Source: Clostridiales bacterium | GTDB taxonomy: Bacteria; Bacillota; Clostridia; Saccharofermentanales; DTU023 | NCBI GenBank assembly: GCA_004556925.1 | Contig: SFFI01000013.1 | Coordinates: 11,563-75,562 of the forward strand | Reading direction: 5' to 3' | Length of the DNA: 64,000 nucleotides | In this document: piece after piece, positions 24,168 to 56,019 of the stretch | Layout of the letters: each line of letters opens with the position of its first letter | Position numbering within the stretch: the stretch's first letter is position 1 | Notes under the pieces: model-generated | Seen by the model: only the letters and a program-made list of their open reading frames with translations | Database searches by the model: none | Told to the model about the DNA's origin: nothing | Translations under genes and position numbers: made by a program

Positions 24168-24443
24168 CTAGCCGTTGATGCGTTCTTTGAGGTTTTTGCC
24201 AGCTCTGAAAGCAGGAGCCTTGGAAGCAGGAATCTTGATGACTTCTTTGGTGCTGGGATTGCGGCCCATGCGCTCAGCACGCTCACGGACTTCAAAGGTA
24301 CCAAAGCCAACGAGAACAACCTTTTCGCCTTTTTCCAGGTTTTCAGCAATAGCATCAAAGACAGCGTTAACAGCCTTTTCACTCTCTTTTTTGGTCAGCT
24401 CTGTTTTTTCAGAAACAGTAGCGATGAGTTCAGTTTTGTTCAT
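24168..24443 (-). CDS. hup: Nucleoid protein HU
   Basis: [32 protein letters not shown]...[38 protein letters not shown]. Confidence 0.95.
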
Positions 24444-24575: not shown

Positions 24576-25277
24576 TTAGGCCCAAGCTTTCTCTCCCCTA
24601 TCCTCCTCTAGGGCCATTTCTGGAAAAAGATCGCATTTTATTAACTTTTGTATTTGTTTATGCAGAGTTCTCACCGCTTCAGCATTGGTATAGCGGTCTT
24701 TGCATTCAATCAAGACGCGGGTTTTCACCGCCTGAAAGATAGGTTTACCCTCTTCAATCGCTAAGGGTAACATCCTATGCCTGTAATCAAGACCGGTCTC
24801 CTCCATTTCTTTTAGTTTAAGGAGACAGTAGCGCACATTGCGTTCGACATGGCTGGTTTCCACTTGGAAATGTTGAGCAGTCATGGGGTAGAGCATTTTA
24901 GACAAGGAGGTAGAGAGTCCAGGATCCATGGTTAATTGTATGAGCATATACCGCAAAAAGTGGTAGCCCTTGAGCGAATCATCAAAGGCATAGCAGGATA
25001 GGACGGAGTCGACATAAAATTCTACGTTAAATTTTTCTGCCTTGCTACTGCGTTCCGCATCCAAGATGAATTTTTGCGTGACGCCTGCAATACGGCGCGC
25101 AGCGTAGGGAGCCCCCTTGCGGCCATCAATAACATAGTGATAATGCCCTTGCGGGTCACAGACACCTAGGTGGCCTTTATCACCCATGATTTGATTGATA
25201 CGATCTAAGAGTTCAGTATTGCTACCTACTACATAAAAACCCAAACTTTGCACGGTCTCATTGTCGAAATACTTCAT
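24576..25277 (-). CDS. Protein with a Spo0A-C-terminal-like DNA-binding domain and an unrecognised N-terminal domain (no receiver domain)
   Basis: LKGYHFLRYMLIQLTMDPGLSTSLSKMLYPMTAQHFQVETSHVERNVRYCL aligns by eye to B. subtilis Spo0A IKGYLYLREAI...[28 protein letters not shown]. Confidence 0.6.
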   Translation of the reverse strand: MKYFDNETVQSLGFYVVGSNTELLDRINQIMGDKGHLGVCDPQGHYHYVIDGRKGAPYAARRIAGVTQKFILDAERSSKAEKFNVEFYVDSVLSCYAFDDSLKGYHFLRYMLIQLTMDPGLSTSLSKMLYPMTAQHFQVETSHVERNVRYCLLKLKEMEETGLDYRHRMLPLAIEEGKPIFQAVKTRVLIECKDRYTNAEAVRTLHKQIQKLIKCDLFPEMALEEDRGEKAWA

Positions 25278-43052: not shown

Positions 43053-43167
43053 CTTTAATAGTTTATCCTATGTCCGTGAATAACTTGGTAACAATTACGA
43101 AATTGCTGTGGCAGTCTCAGCTCGAGAGTGCTAAACCCAGGATAACAAAGATGCCAAGACTAAGAAA

Positions 43168-43256
43168 GTCCAAATTAAGAGCGTCTTAGCTAAGGAGAAC
43201 CAAACTAGAGCAGTCCTGATTAAGAGCGTCCTAGCCAAGGCGGTCGAACTAGTGCA
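43168..43256. repeat. Imperfect tandem duplication (45 + 44 bp)
   Basis: gtccaaATTAAGAGCGTCtTAGCtAAGG...AACTAGaGCA (43168-43212) versus gtcctgATTAAGAGCGTCcTAGCcAAGG...AACTAGtGCA (43213-43256); roughly three quarters identical by eye. Confidence 0.6.
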
Positions 43257-43295
43257 CAAAAAGCAACAAGCTCTGCGGCAGGAAAACCACAGAGC
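43256..43295 (-). terminator. Intrinsic terminator downstream of tRNA-Glu
   Basis: On the minus strand: GCTCTGTGG-loop-CCGCAGAGC (9 bp including one G-U) followed by TTGTTGCTTTTT. Confidence 0.6.
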
Positions 43296-43300
43296 TCGTC

Positions 43301-43376
43301 TGGTGACCCTAAGGGGAATCGAACCCCTGATTCCGCCGTGAGAGGGCGGCGTCTTGAACCGCTTGACCATAGGGCC
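43301..43376 (-). tRNA. tRNA-Glu (anticodon CUC) with encoded CCA
   Basis: The reverse complement GGCCCTATGGTCAAGCGGTTCAAGACGCCGCCCTCTCACGGCGGAATCAGGGGTTCGATTCCCCTTAGGGTCACCA folds as a cloverleaf. The anticodon loop is CTCTCAC and the T-loop is GGTTCGATTCC. Confidence 0.9.
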
Positions 43377-43387
43377 ATAACTCGTTG

Positions 43388-43416
43388 AGTTTACACTAAA
43401 TTTTTCAGATAAGCAA
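43388..43416 (-). promoter_or_regulatory. Candidate promoter of tRNA-Glu
   Basis: On the minus strand: TTGCTT, 17 nt, TAAACT, ending about 11 nt before the tRNA 5' end. Confidence 0.5.
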
Positions 43417-43539
43417 ATTTTTCCCCAAAAAGGCCAGAGTAGCTAAAGTGAAAAAGTAAGTTCCACTTCCACACTAAAGGGTGGGGAGTTGCATTTAGCC
43501 TTACAAGAAATTTTACCGAAAATTAAATCCTACACTCCT

Positions 43540-43674
43540 CAGGTTTTTGAGGCTTGTTGACTTTGTGGGCGGGCTTCATGAACTGTCAATGGTCTTTAAC
43601 CGCTTTGCGGCGCCGAAGGCGCCATTGACAGTTCATGTGGTCCGGCCATAGTTTAAGCAAGCCTCAAAAACCTG
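43540..43674. repeat. 135-bp nested inverted repeat (long hairpin)
   Basis: Outer perfect 17-bp arms: CAGGTTTTTGAGGCTTG (43540-43556) / CAAGCCTCAAAAACCTG (43658-43674). Inner perfect 16-bp arms: CATGAACTGTCAATGG (43577-43592) / CCATTGACAGTTCATG (43622-43637). The apex has CCGC-TTT-GCGG and GGCGCC-GAA-GGCGCC. Confidence 0.85.
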
Positions 43675-43690
43675 CACAATAAATTGACAG

Positions 43691-44270
43691 CCATTACCTG
43701 TGTAAACCGCGAAAGTCATCTTTCACATGCTATTATATCCTTCGCTTTCAGCCAATTACCTGTGGAAATCGAAGAAGTCACTTTTCACATGCCTTTCGCC
43801 CTTAATTATTTGGCCGAAATTCATGTGAAATAAATCATTATGACATTCCACCATAAATTGAGCTTATCTGGCCCTAGCAGAATTCTTGTGAAATAACTCC
43901 ATATGCTATTTCACCATATAATTTCCTTATCTGGTCTGGGCAAAAATATTGTGAATTGAGCCAATATCACATTTCACCATATTTTTTGGCTTTTTTCCCT
44001 GCCCAAAGGCTTGTGAAATGGACAAATGCAATATTCCACCACATTTGTGATTTTGTGGACCAGTCCGGCCGGCCTGAAAAAGGTTGGCAAACCCCTGATT
44101 TGGCGGAATTGCCAACTCTTTTTTCGCTATCCCAGCATGGTATTGCCCCGAAAAGAGTTGGCAAAGTCTTGCTTTAGACGATCTGCCAACCATTATTTGG
44201 CTTTCCCAAGCAAATGTGATCCAGAAAAAGGTTGGCAAAGTGCTAATTTAGCGAGATTGCCAACCAATAA
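43691..44270. repeat. Periodic array of nine diverged palindromic units (six at 62-63 bp spacing, three at 74 bp)
   Basis: 5' arms TGTGnAAA start at 43699, 43761, 43824, 43887, 43950 and 44012, with matching TTTCAC-type 3' arms in the same register. GTTGGCAA-N18-(T/C)TGCCAAC units start at 44083, 44157 and 44231. Confidence 0.85.
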
Positions 44271-44339
44271 AGCTGCCTGACAAAAGCTAGCTAAGAAAGG
44301 CAATTACAAATTTACACACTATTAGGGACTAGACTGAAA

Positions 44340-45029
44340 CTAGATATGGAAGCGGACCTTTAACTCAAAGACAATCAACCTATATTTGAGGGCGACCGTA
44401 AGGGCAAAAACCAGGCCACAGAGAGAAGCACTCAGGGCAGCAGGCCAGACAGGTTGGAGGTCTGACCAGGCCAAGAGCAAGAGGGGCAGAATGCCTATTA
44501 GCGAAGTGGCTAAGAGGTAAAGAATGTAATCTCCCAGCTCATAGCGGACCAGGAGCATGGTCACGAGGATGGCTATAACCGCTAGGCCCGCAAATAAGGG
44601 AATCGCATAGACAATAGACCAGCCCTGCCAGCCAGTCAAATAGTCCCAGGCCAAGGCCAGGCTTGCCAGAATGGCCAGCTGATAGAGGACGCTCTTGGCA
44701 AGGTTACGGCGTTTGCGGATGAGGGCCGTGCCCAGGGACCAAAAGCCCGCTAGGATTAAAGCGGCATGGATCCAGCTTAGGCCTATGTCGGGCCAGGCCA
44801 AACGCATGGCCAGCAGGATGCCCAATAGAATTGCGGATAGGCCCATGAAGACCTTAAAGATCAAGTGCTGGTTGTAACGCAAAGGAATGAGGGGGAAACT
44901 ATCTTGGGTCAAGTCCTCTCCACTCTGGGAGAGGGGTCGGTCTTCCAGGACTTCCTGGCAGAGGGGGCAAGAGATTCTTTGTCCCTTGACCTCTATTTTG
45001 CAATGGGGGCAGTAGGCCATCTTAAACAC
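44340..45029 (-). CDS. Zinc-ribbon (CPHC...CPLC) N-terminus fused to a 5-6 TM membrane domain; possibly DUF6320-like
   Basis: MAYCPHCKIEVKGQRISCPLCQ is followed by hydrophobic helices. There is an 8-nt overlap with the upstream 849-aa gene. Confidence 0.7.
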   Translation of the reverse strand: MFKMAYCPHCKIEVKGQRISCPLCQEVLEDRPLSQSGEDLTQDSFPLIPLRYNQHLIFKVFMGLSAILLGILLAMRLAWPDIGLSWIHAALILAGFWSLGTALIRKRRNLAKSVLYQLAILASLALAWDYLTGWQGWSIVYAIPLFAGLAVIAILVTMLLVRYELGDYILYLLATSLIGILPLLLLAWSDLQPVWPAALSASLCGLVFALTVALKYRLIVFELKVRFHI

Positions 45030-47792: not shown

Positions 47793-49625
47793 CTAGCCGC
47801 GCCTTTTCAGGAAAAAACCTACGAGGGCAAGGCCCAGGCCTGTCCAAAGAATCAAGCTCGTCTCTACACTACCTGTAGCCGGCAAGGCATAGACATTTGG
47901 GCTGGGCGTAGTAGGCATCACTACGACTTGTCTTGTCGGCTGGGGTAAAGTTTCCATCGATTCAACTACAGTTTCAACAGTAGTCTGGTTAGGATGAAGA
48001 GGCATGCCAATGTTATGCAAAGGTAAGGTTTCCACCGGCACAACCACAGTTACCGCAGTAGTCTGATTAGGATAAACAGGTATCTCAATGTTAGGAATAT
48101 CATTGCTTTCCCATTCTGCGATAAAAGTATGGTCTCCCTCCACGACATAAGTGTCTCCCGGTTGATACACAGAATCCTGTCCCTTCCAGTAGAGAAAACG
48201 ATAGCCCTCCCTAACTGGCGTTTCGATGATTATAAAGTTTTGATCTTTCACTACAACAAAGGTCTTATTGGAGCCATTGCCATCCCAATTTCCCCCGTTG
48301 GGATCAAAGGTCAGGAGGCAGTCTTCTGCAGTATATGCGGCCTTGAGATCCGCCTGCCAAACCTCCTGTTGGTAATCGAGCTTAATAGCTTCTTCTGCGT
48401 GCTCTATGGCATCGAAGCGCTGCCCTTGACGGCCATCTTCAAACCAGCCTGATGCCCGGAAAGGAGTCATCTTGCCGGTGGCCGTCATGCTTTTACCGGT
48501 GGGGAGCTTGACCGTGTGAGCGGTATCATTATCAATGGTTATATCATCTCCGGCTGTTGTCGCCTTGTTCTCATAAATAACTGACTGATCATCAACCGTC
48601 AGGTCACATTCAAGAAGACCAATAGCGCCACCCCTATTTGCCTGATTCTGCGTAAAGGCGCTTCCTGCTACGCTTACAGAACCGGTTGCATAAAGTGCGC
48701 CGCCAGATTCTATTGCATTATTGTTCTTGAATATGCAGTTTTTCATGTCCAGCGTGGTGCCGGAATAAATCGCACCGCCATATTGCGCACTATTTTCCTC
48801 GAAAACGGCATTTTCAATATGGACGCTCTTTCCATTGAAGTTGGCAATGGCCCCTCCGAAGTCGTTACCCCATTCGCCGGTCGCACGGTTATTTCGGAAG
48901 ATACCACCGTACACATTAAGAACTGCCGTAGCTTCTGATTGCCAGGGTGGAAGACTGATCCCTCCACCCATCATCTTAGACTGATTATTCTCTACCGTTC
49001 CGCCATACATATTGAAGGTGCCATAAACCACAATACCGGCTGCGCCTGTCCCGCCATGACCATTCGAGTTACGAACGGTAACACCAGCGTACATGTTAAT
49101 AGTCCCATTATCATGTGCGATCAATAAGGCGTTAGTGCTGTATTGTTCTTTACCATCAATAACAAGTCTGCTTTTTTCCGGTTCAGTTTTGCTACCCAGA
49201 TTGACCACTGCACCATTCTTGGTGAAAATCACATTTTTGTAGGCGTATGTTGTATCATCCGATCGCGTAATGGTGTGCCCGTTTCCTAAGATGGTATAGG
49301 TTCCCGGCTGGTCGAATCGCAGGATCCCATCAGTGTCAGAAGTAGCGCTGTCATCTGTTCGATTGCCGGAGAGCTTATTTAATTCGACATCCTTCAATAG
49401 TTCGATCGTATCCCCATCATTTGCCGCATCGACAGCATCCACCAAAGTGTCATAGTGCATTGTACCGATCATGGCTTCATGCGGGCAGTCACCTGTACAA
49501 TTATCAGTTGGTTCTGCATGAACGCAGAGGGGCATAAAGGTTAGTGCGAACAGGAGTAATAAAATAAAGAGGATATACCCATTATGTTTAAGATTAGTCT
49601 TATTGATCATGATCATTCTTATCAT
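47793..49625 (-). CDS. Cell-wall-anchored surface protein: signal peptide, Pmp-type (GGAI) beta-helix repeats, Listeria-Bacteroides repeat, LPATG sorting signal
   Basis: FGGAIANF, YGGAIYSG, SGGALYATG and RGGAIGLL repeats; LTFDPNGGNWDG...REGYRFLYWKG; C-terminal LPATG plus a TM helix and KRRG. Confidence 0.85.
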   Translation of the reverse strand: MIRMIMINKTNLKHNGYILFILLLLFALTFMPLCVHAEPTDNCTGDCPHEAMIGTMHYDTLVDAVDAANDGDTIELLKDVELNKLSGNRTDDSATSDTDGILRFDQPGTYTILGNGHTITRSDDTTYAYKNVIFTKNGAVVNLGSKTEPEKSRLVIDGKEQYSTNALLIAHDNGTINMYAGVTVRNSNGHGGTGAAGIVVYGTFNMYGGTVENNQSKMMGGGISLPPWQSEATAVLNVYGGIFRNNRATGEWGNDFGGAIANFNGKSVHIENAVFEENSAQYGGAIYSGTTLDMKNCIFKNNNAIESGGALYATGSVSVAGSAFTQNQANRGGAIGLLECDLTVDDQSVIYENKATTAGDDITIDNDTAHTVKLPTGKSMTATGKMTPFRASGWFEDGRQGQRFDAIEHAEEAIKLDYQQEVWQADLKAAYTAEDCLLTFDPNGGNWDGNGSNKTFVVVKDQNFIIIETPVREGYRFLYWKGQDSVYQPGDTYVVEGDHTFIAEWESNDIPNIEIPVYPNQTTAVTVVVPVETLPLHNIGMPLHPNQTTVETVVESMETLPQPTRQVVVMPTTPSPNVYALPATGSVETSLILWTGLGLALVGFFLKRRG

Positions 49626-55092: not shown

Positions 55093-55128
55093 GGTTGGCT
55101 AATCAGCTCAAACCAAGGTTTGCCAACC
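55093..55128. repeat. Solo copy of the GGTTGGC...GCCAACC hairpin element seen in triplicate at 44.08-44.26 kb
   Basis: GGTTGGCtAA-N16-TTtGCCAACC followed by TTTATTTT; it abuts the stop of the toxin stub. Confidence 0.7.
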
Positions 55129-55129
55129 T

Positions 55130-55294
55130 TTATTTTCCAAACAAGTCCGCATGACTGCCATTGCGGTAGAGCATCAACACCAGCAATGAAGACTGAACTT
55201 CGTAAATCAAAAGCCAGTCAGGATCAATATGACACTCACGAGTTCCTTTATATTTTCCAGATAGATTATGGTCTCGAAAGTTTCTTAAGCTCAT
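55130..55294 (-). pseudogene. YafQ/RelE-family toxin remnant (C-terminal ~50 aa only)
   Basis: My translation: MSLRNFRDHNLSGKYKGTRECHIDPDWLLIYEVQSSLLVLMLYRNGSHADLFGK*. It matches the YafQ C-terminal half (from roughly residue 45 by eye). The N-terminal half is absent and the ORF overlaps the antitoxin 3' end by 29 nt. Confidence 0.6.
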
Positions 55295-55547
55295 CAATAC
55301 TATGATATCCTACTGCACTCGGATCAAAAGCAATGCGCCTTCCCTCTTCTATAGCTGCTGATGTCTTTGCATTCGGGACATCCAACTTTAAATCAAAGGG
55401 CAGACCATTTTCACGCACCGTCGCCCTAAGAAATAAATTTACAGCTGTAGTCATATTCATGCCAAGCTCAGAAAAAATAGTCTCAGCCTGTTTTTTAATA
55501 GTCGTATCGGTTCTAACATTCAAATTACTTGTAGCCATGACTATCAC
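55266..55547 (-). CDS. RelB/DinJ-family type II antitoxin
   Basis: MATSNLNVRTDTTIKKQAETIFSELGMNMTTAVNLFLRATVRENGLPFDL. The likely start is the Met at 55538. Confidence 0.85.
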   Translation of the reverse strand: MIVMATSNLNVRTDTTIKKQAETIFSELGMNMTTAVNLFLRATVRENGLPFDLKLDVPNAKTSAAIEEGRRIAFDPSAVGYHSIDELKKLSRP

Positions 55548-55679: not shown

Positions 55680-55757
55680 CTACAAGCGTTTCTCCAAATC
55701 GAGCTTTCCATATAAAATACGCCTAACTTCCATGATACGTAATTTATAATCTTTCAT
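55680..55757 (-). pseudogene. RelE/ParE-family toxin remnant (25 codons; apparent internal deletion)
   Basis: The ATG overlaps the antitoxin end in the usual TA fashion. The product MKDYKLRIMEVRRILYGKLDLEKRL looks like a toxin N-terminus joined directly to a ParE/RelE C-terminal ...V.RILHG.RD motif. Confidence 0.45.
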
Positions 55758-56019
55758 TGTCTTTTATGCGCTCTTTCACTCTAGTAAAAACTTCGTCAGC
55801 ACAGTAAAGCTCAGGTATTATTTCTGCCATTCTATCTGCCTCATCTAGTCTTTCTTCTATGTCCTCGGTAAGTGCAGTATATTGCTCCAAACTCATAACA
55901 ACCATCGTCCCATAGCCGCTTTTTGTTAAATAAACAGGCGTACCTGATTTAACAATTTTCTCAATTTCCTTAAATCGGTTGCGTAAATCGGAAACAGGTC
56001 GAATTGTAATCATGTCCAT
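55744..56019 (-). CDS. Phd/YefM-family type II antitoxin
   Basis: ITIRPVSDLRNRFKEIEKIVKSGTPVYLTKSGYGTMVVMSLEQYTAL. Confidence 0.8.
   Translation of the reverse strand: MDMITIRPVSDLRNRFKEIEKIVKSGTPVYLTKSGYGTMVVMSLEQYTALTEDIEERLDEADRMAEIIPELYCADEVFTRVKERIKDNERL

Follow-up and report, generated by a model that had tools for sequence, protein, structure and literature searches.

A composite block of tandem hairpin-capable repeats upstream of two sets of tRNA genes in an uncultured species of Clostridia

The stretch between the tRNA-Glu(CTC) gene and the gene of a DUF6320 membrane protein carries a block of repeats that is, with a probability of roughly one half, a recently acquired, lineage-specific composite of intergenic repeats of the REP/BOX/MIRU kind. 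The block consists of two unrelated tandem families of hairpin-capable units, here called A and B, a 135-nt palindrome and a short tail. Being young, species-specific, twice present, strain-variable and absent from relatives, it stands closer to REP, BOX and VNTR elements than to a new RNA or defence system. The term window denotes the whole 64-kb stretch of DNA that was analysed, and coordinates refer to it unless another sequence is named.

Organisation of the block

The gene for tRNA-Glu(CTC) occupies positions 43301..43376 of the minus strand and is followed by a strong terminator (43265-43300). Its promoter, also on the minus strand, lies at 43388..43416, with the -35 hexamer TTGCTT at 43416-43411, a 17-nt spacer and the -10 hexamer TAAACT at 43393-43388. 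The upstream neighbour is the DUF6320 membrane protein gene (226 aa, 44340..45020, minus strand), the predicted transcript of which would run into the B array; the nearest B unit, B3, starts 76 nt past the DUF6320 stop (44339-44264). No Pfam-recognisable ORF is present between the two genes, and this is the sole long non-coding stretch in the window, as had been claimed in an earlier reading of the letters alone (the sequence-only reading); seeming gaps at 1-2540 and 57.2-58.3 kb are coding.

The A array (43691..44072, no strand assigned) comprises six diverged units of 62-63 bp, A1 to A6, each with a 27-bp palindromic core of the form GTGRAA-N15-TTYCAC. The cores are located at 43700-43726, 43762-43788, 43825-43851, 43888-43914, 43951-43977 and 44013-44039, and the sequence of A4 is GTGAAATAACTCCATATGCTATTTCAC. 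A search of the 64 kb with up to one mismatch matched this pattern exactly six times, at the six core starts (each the TGTG start of the sequence-only reading plus one), against a chance expectation of 0.57 matches per 64 kb; six matches were reached in 0 of 100 shuffles. The units are 60-82% alike, with homology spanning the entire unit.

The B array (44073..44294, minus strand) is made up of three 74-bp units, B1 at 44083-44116, B2 at 44157-44190 and B3 at 44231-44264, each forming a GGTTGGCA...TGCCAACC hairpin with a T-run. The unit consensus is GTTGGCAA-N18-YTGCCAAC, and the pattern GTTGGCA-N20-TGCCAAC was matched without mismatch at 44083, 44157 and 44231. A repeat search gave spacings of 62/63/63/63/62 for A and 74/74 for B, and TRF also reports a period-63 array. 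The nine periodic palindromic units of the sequence-only reading were thus recovered by pattern and repeat searches alike, at the places it had given, and the window contains no further such array. The gap between the arms is strictly constant, 15 bp in 12/12 A units and 20 bp in every B unit, counted over the window and the second locus described below.

The sequence-only reading had overlooked a long, near-perfect palindrome of 135 nt in the same intergenic block (43540..43674, no strand assigned). It has 53-nt arms and a branched tip with GGCGCC-TTCG-GCGCC, and it is part of the duplicated block. The tail segment (43442..43505, minus strand) lies closest to the tRNA gene and carries a short A-like palindrome, GTGGAA-N7-TTTCAC, at 43448-43466. 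At either locus the end of this palindrome and the downstream -35 hexamer of the tRNA promoter are separated by 31 nt.

One solo B-like hairpin and no solo A copy were found in the approximately 80 kb searched (window, L211 and L214). The hairpin is located at 55094..55127 on the plus strand, reads GGTTGGCTAA-N-TTTGCCAACC plus TTTATTTT, and aligns with the B units over the whole of its own length. It lies 3 nt past the stop codon of an unannotated RelE/YafQ-like toxin ORF, downstream of relB (55266-55547).

Several other ideas about the region were dropped. The local alignment score of the A units with the tRNA promoter region equals that of the shuffled null, so a derivation of the A units from that region was rejected. 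There is no GC-skew switch that would mark a replication origin or terminus, and an apparent switch of gene strand at the left end of the window came about only because an ORF extends past that end. A DnaA-box cluster is unsupported, the A arms fitting the relaxed DnaA-box consensus only, and mini-ORFs (MVK*) with an SD-like sequence in A4 are conserved neither in the other units nor at the second locus.

Second locus, copy number and relatives

A second copy of the block, about 54 kb away on the same contig, was found by searching with translations of spurious ORFs inside the array; a like search with the palindrome ORF matched only itself. This copy (locus 2, represented by L211 and by L214, the latter on the same ENA contig as the window DNA) again combines a B array with the six A units in unchanged order, the 135-nt palindrome and the tail, and is located upstream of tRNA-Met/Tyr/Pro. 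It is 81.5% identical to the block of the window over 752 bp, the homology covering exactly the part from the palindrome to the B array. For the tail segment, blastn gave 76-78% identity to L211 6276-6333 and L214 2130-2187. Both blocks have the same orientation, lie just upstream of tRNA promoters and share one complex higher-order layout, while the flanking genes differ and are unrelated housekeeping genes. The shared layout, the placement at tRNA promoters and the fixed 31-nt position of the tail palindrome hint at function or targeting rather than junk.

In the two relatives L083 and L082, whose DUF6320 proteins are 67% and 73% identical to that of the window, the stop codon is followed by about 70 bp and then by tRNA-Glu with the same promoter, and there is no array. 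The promoter (TTGCTT-17-TAAACT/TACACT) is thus retained directly after the DUF6320 gene. Because relatives with a flanking protein of this similarity have only about 70 bp at the site, the block of about 880 bp is regarded as a recent gain, and no gene has been lost there. The proposal that relatives carry a normal coding gene of which the block is the decayed remnant accordingly falls. The sequence-only reading had also allowed that the units might be ordinary dispersed REP-like terminator hairpins without a conserved periodicity in related genomes, and in part this is what was found: the relatives lack the array at this locus, and the terminator-like hairpins of the B units recur, in an array at another locus and once singly.

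The number of B units varies, with three in the window and at least four in L085 at locus 1, and six in L211 and eight in L214 at locus 2, where a 222-bp super-repeat is seen. The B units are therefore tandem units at more than one locus with strain-variable copy number, in the manner of VNTR and MIRU elements. The A units occur at the two loci in six copies always. In L081 the linker between B3 and B2 carries the locus-2 variant, which was counted as an exchange between the loci. A covariance model of the B unit found it in this species only, within 810 kb of Clostridia DNA.

The favoured explanation may be put as follows. Tandem duplication of hairpin-bearing units would have built the block, and the whole block would then have been copied to the site about 54 kb away. 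The B array is probably still dynamic, unequal recombination between 74-bp units or 222-bp triplets shifting its copy number between strains, with sequence exchange between the two loci, while the A array may be older and frozen at six units. A point against a REP/BOX/MIRU-like element is its low number: the approximately 80 kb searched contain two arrays and one solo copy, where such elements typically have dispersed copies by the tens to hundreds.

A mobilising enzyme was found neither in the window nor at the fetched loci. A Pfam search of about 40 ORFs in the window, together with the gene lists of L211 and L214, gave no cas, intI/integrase, par, rep, RAYT or transposase gene in the window; an IS3-like transposase fragment is present at the contig end beside locus 2, and RAYT was seen neither in the window nor at the fetched loci. 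Searches of plasmids and phages with blastn delivered no matches to the block, and three conserved 20-28-mers had no viral match. A metagenome scan with a two-unit B pattern yielded more than 120 matches, all of them unrelated 'AGTTGGCA' iteron elements, and a viral scan with the B pattern gave only the same unrelated element, adjoining primase/helicase genes. With UvrA as query, a contig search yielded no relative above 63% identity.

Folding, arm conservation and alternative explanations

Folding bears out the statement of the sequence-only reading that the B units on the minus strand form a stable hairpin followed by a T-run. The B stems have energies of -11 to -18 kcal/mol, the RNA hairpins of the three units in the window lying at -16 to -18 kcal/mol, and whole B units reach z-scores of -2 to -3. 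For B3 a tail of T5-6 is present on the minus (module) strand, and B1 has one of T6-7 on the plus strand; for the B1-type copies in general, all of which have such a tail on the strand opposite to the module, it is T7-8. The combination of a G+C-rich stem-loop and a following T-run, from which intrinsic terminator activity is predicted, is found in the B units only. The A hairpins are weak (-2 to -11 kcal/mol) and have no T-runs; three of the six A units have a plus-strand minimum-energy fold other than the palindromic pairing, and for the A region the minus strand gives the better fold (z -4.5, against -3.1 on plus).

Under the composite-repeat explanation the B units are putative bidirectional intrinsic terminators, with B3-type units halting read-through from the upstream operon and B1-type units halting transcription from the tRNA side. 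If they terminate both ways, the block would be at most a dispensable transcriptional insulator before the tRNA promoters.

The claim that the arms covary did not stand. Among 12 independent A units, 76.9% of the cells pair, as compared with 74.3% after shuffling of the 3' arms between units, and 64 of 500 shuffles are as high. Double-change pairs number four against 2.7 expected (106/500 shuffles), and mismatches in the A arms show no G-U enrichment on either strand. The mean local score between A and B units is 13.8 (null 12.8), which gives no detectable homology, so that the differing arms of the two families do not amount to covariation; the B arms are invariant and therefore uninformative. 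Inner-stem covariation in the B loops looked suggestive in the three units of the window, but in the locus-2 copies these inner stems are disrupted and no compensating change restores them.

It is the arm sequence itself that is conserved. Between the loci the A arms are 88.5% identical and the A linkers 71.5% (p=8e-4), and the B arms are identical at 48/48 positions as against 85% in the linkers (p=0.003). The idea of the sequence-only reading that selection acts on the hairpin rather than on the primary sequence, which rested on covarying arms, fails. The better conservation of arms than of linkers looks like purifying selection; the arm sequences may be maintained by concerted evolution and/or by recognition through a putative host protein.

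It is unlikely that the block is instead a functional unit at two tRNA operons, either as a phased array of palindromes for a DNA-binding protein (sopC- or enhancer-like) or as a multi-hairpin RNA of about 0.5 kb with a promoter hidden in the long palindrome and a stop at the B1 terminator. Either version would imply purifying selection on the arms, with a variable terminator bank at the far end.

In the DNA version, itself doubtful, a host DNA-binding protein would occupy the A and/or B palindromes as phased sites before tRNA promoters, resulting in a higher-order nucleoprotein structure that is sopC- or centromere-like, enhancer-like or a titration site. This agrees with the conservation of arm sequence rather than pairing, with the constant arm spacing given above, with A hairpins too weak for an RNA structure, and with the fixed 31-nt distance between an A-like palindrome and the -35 hexamer at two different tRNA promoters. 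As to helical phasing, the sequence-only reading was right that 63 and 74 bp are about six and seven turns, and with half-sites 21 bp apart in units of 63 bp the A sites fall on multiples of two helical turns and so on one face of the helix. Internal AA/TT periodicity of about 10.6 bp holds for the B units only, where three arrays have 10.57 bp as their strongest harmonic; in the A units the peak is at 9 bp rather than 10.5 bp, and the B half-sites are 27 bp apart and therefore off-face. One rigid dimer geometry could not accommodate the 7-bp gap of the tail palindrome alongside the 15-bp gap of the A units; the A array lies at distances from the tRNA promoter that differ by about 375 bp between the loci, and copy number varies freely. 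A pattern search of the 64 kb found no single A- or B-type site upstream of any other window gene, and the gene lists of the two loci contain no candidate binding protein common to both and no par or rep genes.

The sopC site of the F plasmid consists of 12 units of 43 bp, and SopB binds the inverted repeat present in every unit. It is likewise a strictly periodic tandem array with one inverted repeat per unit and a period near whole helical turns, but its units are near-identical and lie beside sopAB on a plasmid, whereas the units described here are 60-82% alike, chromosomal, variable in number and without partition genes. Adjacent parA/parB-type genes and near-identical sites, as expected of a partition centromere, are present at neither locus. 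The centromere-like reading is conceivable yet unsupported, since only the B units are periodic at 10.57 bp and no partner gene is nearby.

In the RNA version, which we likewise consider improbable, the block would be a plus-strand non-coding RNA gene, antisense to the flanking genes, with a product of 460-590 nt serving as multi-hairpin scaffold or sponge for an RNA-binding protein. Transcription would start at a predicted promoter-like site, TTGACA-16-CATAGT (43625..43652, plus strand, 10/12 matches), within the 3' arm of the palindrome and facing the A array, or just upstream of the palindrome; it would run through the six A units and stop at B1, the best plus-strand terminator, the remaining B units being a terminator bank shared with the convergent upstream operon. 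Both hexamers are identical at locus 2 in the alignment, where five of the 16 spacer bases differ, and every B1-type unit has its T-tail on the plus strand. The stretch homologous between the loci runs from the palindrome to the B array and has its variable part where the RNA would have its 3' end, and the A cores are more conserved than the linkers. The palindrome folds at -88 kcal/mol on the plus strand (z -12) and at -71 kcal/mol on the minus strand (z -9), i.e., 17 kcal/mol better on plus, with eight G-U pairs on plus and none on minus. Compared with locus 2, it has one compensatory pair (A-U/C-G) among 49, too little to decide. This pair and the strong G-U strand asymmetry are as expected of an RNA.

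Against an RNA stand the weak A hairpins, half of which do not adopt the palindromic pairing as plus-strand minimum-energy fold, the lack of covariation and of G-U enrichment in the A units, and the better minus-strand fold of the A region, which conflicts with the strand deduced for the palindrome. A promoter scan of the region gave four sites where 2.0 +/- 1.5 are expected, which is neither above chance nor one per unit, and the two of these that lie near the B units are not conserved at locus 2. A candidate promoter upstream of the palindrome, TTACAA-17-TAAATC, was dropped, as its -35 hexamer has only 3/6 matches and is out of register between the loci. The element is absent from relatives and therefore not a conserved RNA.

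The search for known RNA families proposed in the sequence-only reading, including ROOL and GOLLD, gave no known Rfam family. At the gathering threshold only RNase P and the tRNA were reported for the whole window, and at E<=10 the segments 43200-44500, 43520-43700 and L211 4300-7300 gave chance matches only, with ROOL, GOLLD, OLE, raiA and NsiR1 absent. The palindrome had generic hairpin matches and matches to Bacillus-plasmid RNA of 17-25 bits, below the gathering score of 31; the best of the latter (25.1 bits, at the palindrome tip) rests on a GUCAA stem plus GGUA only.

The NsiR1 array of Nostoc contains 12 copies of an sRNA of about 60 nt, each with its own promoter (PMC9045159). The block resembles it as an intergenic tandem array of short, slightly diverged hairpin-containing units; unlike NsiR1, in which each repeat has a DIF1-motif promoter and a terminator, its 62-74-bp units have no consistent promoter, so that the promoter and terminator per unit which characterise tandem sRNA arrays of the NsiR1 or LhrC type are not seen.

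A degenerate CRISPR, an integron cassette array or a decayed coding gene, readings to which periods of 63 and 74 bp (within the range of CRISPR repeat plus spacer) and spurious ORFs of 88-116 aa called in the arrays might lend themselves, are effectively refuted, the first two in line with the sequence-only reading: whole units and not just the 'repeats' are mutual homologues (60-82%), so that no part of a unit qualifies as a unique spacer, and the 'repeats' are far less alike than those of a CRISPR; cas and intI genes are absent from the window and the fetched loci; the palindromes read GTTGGCA...TGCCAAC and GTGRAA...TTYCAC, not RYYYAAC...GTTRRRY, with no cassettes between them; and periods of 62, 63 and 74 bp disrupt any reading frame, the spurious ORF products matching their own copies only.

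Comparison with known intergenic repeats

Among modular intergenic repeats of Firmicutes, the BOX/SPRITE elements of Streptococcus pneumoniae are similar in having variable tandem hairpin sub-units flanked by other modules, strain-variable copy number and no transposase of their own. They differ in being scattered in about 100 copies or more, presumably through mobilisation in trans, whereas two composites and one solo hairpin are known here. Compared with boxB (45 bp), the units of the block are larger (62-74 bp) and lie upstream of tRNA genes; the likeness is one of layout, and no sequence kinship is expected.

REP/BIME elements affect termination and mRNA stability and contain binding sites for IHF and gyrase (PMC3184786). 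The block shares with them imperfect palindromes that are extragenic, probably transcribed and arranged singly or in tandem clusters, with arm sequences conserved and not covarying. REPs are about 35 bp long, G+C-rich, present in hundreds of copies, alternating in orientation within BIMEs and linked to RAYT; the units of the block are direct, with A+T-rich A units, its copy number is apparently very low, and a RAYT gene was not encountered in the window or the fetched loci. For the MIRU-VNTRs of Mycobacterium tuberculosis, a portion of the same source places the repeats within or after operons (PMC3184786). Tandem intergenic units of 40-100 bp at several loci with strain-variable copy number are common to both systems; MIRUs, however, are not palindromic terminators, often have small overlapping ORFs, occur at about 41 loci and belong to an unrelated phylum.

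If the arm conservation and the association with tRNA promoters reflect function, the block would represent a new type of tRNA-linked regulatory array or RNA. If the ordinary reading as an intergenic repeat is true, it is mainly a caution, since "different but self-complementary arms" can be two unrelated adjacent tandem-repeat families. It would also be a rare case in which the birth of a REP/BOX-like element (absent in the 67-73% relatives), its duplication and its ongoing expansion are visible within one uncultured species. Arrays of this sort would, moreover, interrupt the assembly of uncultured Clostridia from short reads; in this species, all independent short-read contigs end about 50-300 bp into the array.

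The repeat array and its arms

The 963 bp between the stop of the DUF6320 gene (44340-45020, minus strand, 226 aa) at 44340 and the tRNA-Glu(CTC) gene (43376-43301, minus) contain no Pfam-recognisable ORF. A separate promoter (TTGCTT at 43416-43411 and TAAACT at 43393-43388, 17 nt apart, minus strand) serves the tRNA gene, and a strong terminator (43300-43265, minus) follows it. The window's genes are all on the minus strand and of the housekeeping type (rpoD, dnaG, tgt, queA, topA, polA, ligA, valS, uvrA, a clpB-like gene and others); cas, integrase, par and transposase genes were not found among them. The host is an uncultured member of the Clostridia, with a top UvrA match of 63% among species representatives.

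The intergenic region (locus 1) carries six A cores, GTGRAA-N15-TTYCAC with at most one mismatch, at 43700, 43762, 43825, 43888, 43951 and 44013, and three B cores, GTTGGCA-N20-TGCCAAC without mismatch, at 44083, 44157 and 44231. The A pattern has no match elsewhere in the 64 kb window (0.57 expected by chance), and none of 100 shuffles reached six. A repeat search gave spacings of 62, 63, 63, 63 and 62 bp for the A units and 74 and 74 bp for the B units, with unit identities of 60-82%, and TRF also picked up the period-63 array, all in exact agreement with the array coordinates of the sequence-only reading. The gap between the arms is fixed at 15 bp in all A units and at 20 bp in all B units. 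Absent from that reading is a 135-nt palindrome at 43540-43674 with 53-nt arms that are 81% complementary; its fold energies are -88 kcal/mol (z -12) for the plus strand and -71 kcal/mol (z -9) for the minus strand.

The proposed covariation of the arms was not borne out. Nine arm pairs were counted in an alignment of twelve independent A cores, half of them from the window and half from a second locus; 76.9% of the cells are paired compared with 74.3% when the 3' arms are shuffled among units (64 of 500 shuffles equal or better), and double changes are no more frequent than in the shuffles. The A arms therefore pair as a side effect of their conserved palindromic consensus, not through compensation within individual units. 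The 29 cells that are not Watson-Crick comprise four G-U pairs on the plus strand, seven on the minus strand and 18 other mismatches. Because the B arms are invariant, the B hairpins give no covariation signal. An apparent inner-stem covariation in the three B loops of the window vanished once the copies from the second locus, with their uncompensated changes, were added. A hairpins are weak (-2 to -11 kcal/mol), with whole-unit z-scores of +0.2 to -2.2, and in three of the six units the best plus-strand fold is one other than the palindromic pairing; the B hairpins, at -11 to -18 kcal/mol, are stable. Outside their own arms, A and B units have no detectable similarity (mean local score 13.8, shuffled mean 12.8), and the contrast between their arms, taken earlier as a sign of selection on the hairpin, is that of two different palindromic repeats.

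Recent gain, second copy and variation

Relatives were found through proteins related to the DUF6320 neighbour, and their contigs were then fetched. In two of them, L083 (67% identity) and L082 (73%), about 70 bp separate the gene from the same tRNA-Glu, whose promoter is also the same, and uvrA and the clpB-like gene come next; array and palindrome are absent at this locus in both. Judging from these contigs, the window's lineage gained about 880 bp and no gene decayed here: the relatives have only the short spacer where a decayed protein-coding gene had been considered, so nothing was lost.

A protein search with a translated spurious ORF of the array returned one related ORF (P0023), on contig L211, and with it a second copy of the entire block in other surroundings (locus 2). 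Here an F420-ligase-like gene is followed by three 31-bp repeats, six B units (a 222-bp triplet, twice), six A units, the long palindrome, about 375 extra bp with a second copy of the 31-bp repeats, the tail, a promoter (TTGACA-16-TATACT), the genes for tRNA-Met, tRNA-Tyr and tRNA-Pro, and metNIQ. L211 5149-5900 is 81.5% identical over 752 bp to window 44267-43520, and the tail at 43505-43442 also matches L211. A further copy of locus 2, L214, lies on an ENA contig that shares 12.7 kb of identical sequence with the window, about 54 kb from locus 1 and inverted relative to it; two copies of the block therefore occur in one chromosome. Each is found close upstream of a tRNA promoter, and both have the same orientation with respect to it.

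The 31-bp units of locus 2 (CCAYCCAYTAGYTGNARANNTGC) are a third tandem family, forming direct repeats of about 160 bp that are 93-96% identical (L211 4826-4910 and 6057-6203; L214 481-639 and 1858-2017). They flank the block of B units, A units and palindrome, which would be excised if they recombined with each other; locus 1 lacks them. At L214 1-340, the end of ENA contig k141_107333, locus 2 of the window's own strain borders on a transposase fragment, the C-terminal end of an IS3-family-like enzyme (...YIRWYNQDRIKISLNNLSPLDYRR...); the fragment adjoins a segment of about 190 bp that is inverted compared with L211, and the contig ends there.

B units number three at locus 1 of the window, at least four at locus 1 in a strain from another sample (L085), six at locus 2 in L211 and eight in L214, and A units six everywhere. 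In L085 the sequence runs on after B1 into a B1-to-B3 linker resembling that of locus 2. A strain 99% identical on the basis of the DUF6320 protein (L081) has a B3-B2 linker of the locus-2 type (CGGCTTACATTTGCTTGGG), with five differences in 41 nt of linker after 120 identical nt (L081 4262-4296 against window 44224-44190), which suggests exchange between the loci by gene conversion of the arrays. In all other short-read contigs of the species the sequence breaks off after 50-300 bp of the array. A B-unit covariance model run on 810 kb of Clostridia DNA hit only this species. A solo B-like hairpin at 55094-55127 shares the 34-bp geometry of the B units and has similar flanking sequence, with a single mismatch in its arms. 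It begins 3 nt past the stop of a RelE/YafQ-like ORF without annotation (55133-55262, minus, ending ...ECHIDPDWLLIYEVQSSLLVLMLYRNGSHADLFGK), a putative toxin that looks like the partner of the RelB antitoxin encoded upstream (relB, 55266-55547); a second, orphan-looking antitoxin, of the Phd/YefM type, lies at 55744-56019.

Identity between the two loci is 48/48 in the B arms, 76% in the B loops and 85% in the B linkers, 88.5% in the A arms, 82% in the A loops and 71.5% in the A linkers, and 89% in the long palindrome. Arms exceed linkers in conservation in both A (Fisher p = 8e-4) and B units (p = 0.003), and their sequences are thus maintained, by either selection or concerted evolution. A short A-like palindrome, GTGRAA-CTTACTT-TTTCAC (GTGGAA-N7-TTTCAC in the window), at 43448-43466 and L211 6303-6321, has the same distance to the -35 hexamer at both loci, its end being exactly 31 nt upstream. 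The promoters differ (TTGCTT/TAAACT for tRNA-Glu, TTGACA/TATACT for tRNA-Met-Tyr-Pro), and the 31 bases in between show no relation after the first six; the shared spacing may be due to chance.

Nature of the element

The evidence on the whole favours, with a probability of about one half, the reading of the block as a composite repeat of intergenic DNA that is specific to the lineage and of the kind represented by REP/BIME, BOX/SPRITE or MIRU-VNTR, probably dispensable, with the B units as predicted, probable terminators. Its recent origin and absence from relatives, the second composite copy, the solo hairpin, a B copy number that varies freely, the exchange between the loci, the terminator anatomy and the lack of covariation and of partner genes all argue for this. 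B3-type units have a T5-6 tail on the minus strand, as the sequence-only reading had noted for B units, B1-type units have T7-8 on the plus strand in every copy, and together they look like a bidirectional terminator bank.

A multi-hairpin non-coding RNA on the plus strand is unlikely, and so, to the same degree, is a protein-binding DNA array, although the significant arm conservation, the tRNA-promoter association repeated at both loci and the RNA-like features of the long palindrome speak for them. In the palindrome, G-U pairs are confined to the plus strand, where there are eight; it also has one compensatory A-U/C-G pair relative to locus 2, and a cUUCGg loop at its tip on the minus strand. 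Its 3' arm holds a promoter-like TTGACA-16-CATAGT on the plus strand, kept at locus 2 despite spacer changes, and the A region folds to -131.5 kcal/mol on the minus strand (z -4.5) versus -109.3 on the plus strand (z -3.1); the strand signals of palindrome, promoter and A region conflict. As to the DNA array, the suggestion that all sites face one side of the helix agrees with the top AA/TT harmonic of three B arrays (10.57 bp) but not with that of the A arrays (8.97 bp), which gives a curved-DNA or one-face model weak support at best. A more interesting, tRNA-linked function of the block is doubtful.

Rfam at the gathering threshold matched only RNase P RNA and tRNA in the window. Permissive searches of the region, the palindrome and the second locus gave chance matches only, the top one a Bacillus-plasmid RNA (25.1 bits, gathering threshold 31) based on a GUCAA stem and GGUA at the palindrome tip; a known RNA family, considered earlier for this region, was thus not found. 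Nor did blastn match plasmids or phages. In its working the block appears to resemble BOX/SPRITE elements (PMC3184786), which are modular, variable tandem hairpins with terminator-like character, and MIRU-VNTR, with variable tandem units at several loci, a likeness short of membership in any named family. It differs from NsiR1-type sRNA arrays (PMC9045159) in having no promoter per unit, and from sopC-type centromeres in its diverged units and lack of par genes. The element is a new sequence family of a known kind. CRISPR, integron and decayed-gene readings are effectively excluded.

Other features

A 233-aa protein encoded at 24576-25277 (minus), adjoining the HU gene (24168-24443), has the Spo0A C-terminal DNA-binding domain as its only match (E 2e-11). 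The A half-site TGTGGAA differs from the 0A box TGTCGAA by one base and lacks its CG core, so the two were not linked. A 610-aa surface protein with Listeria-Bacteroides and Chlamydia PMP repeats contains a 78-bp coding tandem repeat (47944-48093, 1.9 copies, 79% match), unrelated to the array.

A conserved element of about 170 bp with packed direct and inverted AGTTGGCA/TGCCAACT iterons, its pattern match always 83 bp, was found on 111 viral contigs (L217-L296 among them) and more than 100 metagenome contigs (many of L091-L210). It was rejected as a homologue of the array, the likeness being only the 7-mer imposed by the search pattern. On viral contig L283 (1700-1880) the element closely follows a DNA primase/helicase gene (phrog_239), and it is probably a phage or satellite replication origin.

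A CIRCE-like inverted repeat, TTAGCACTC-N9-GACTGCCAC, is located at 43108-43134 (minus), about 55 nt before uvrA, whose downstream neighbour is the clpB/clpC-like gene. It is the sole match in the window (0.03 expected) and a similar element occupies the same place in L083; the uvrA-clp operon may be under HrcA-type heat-shock control.
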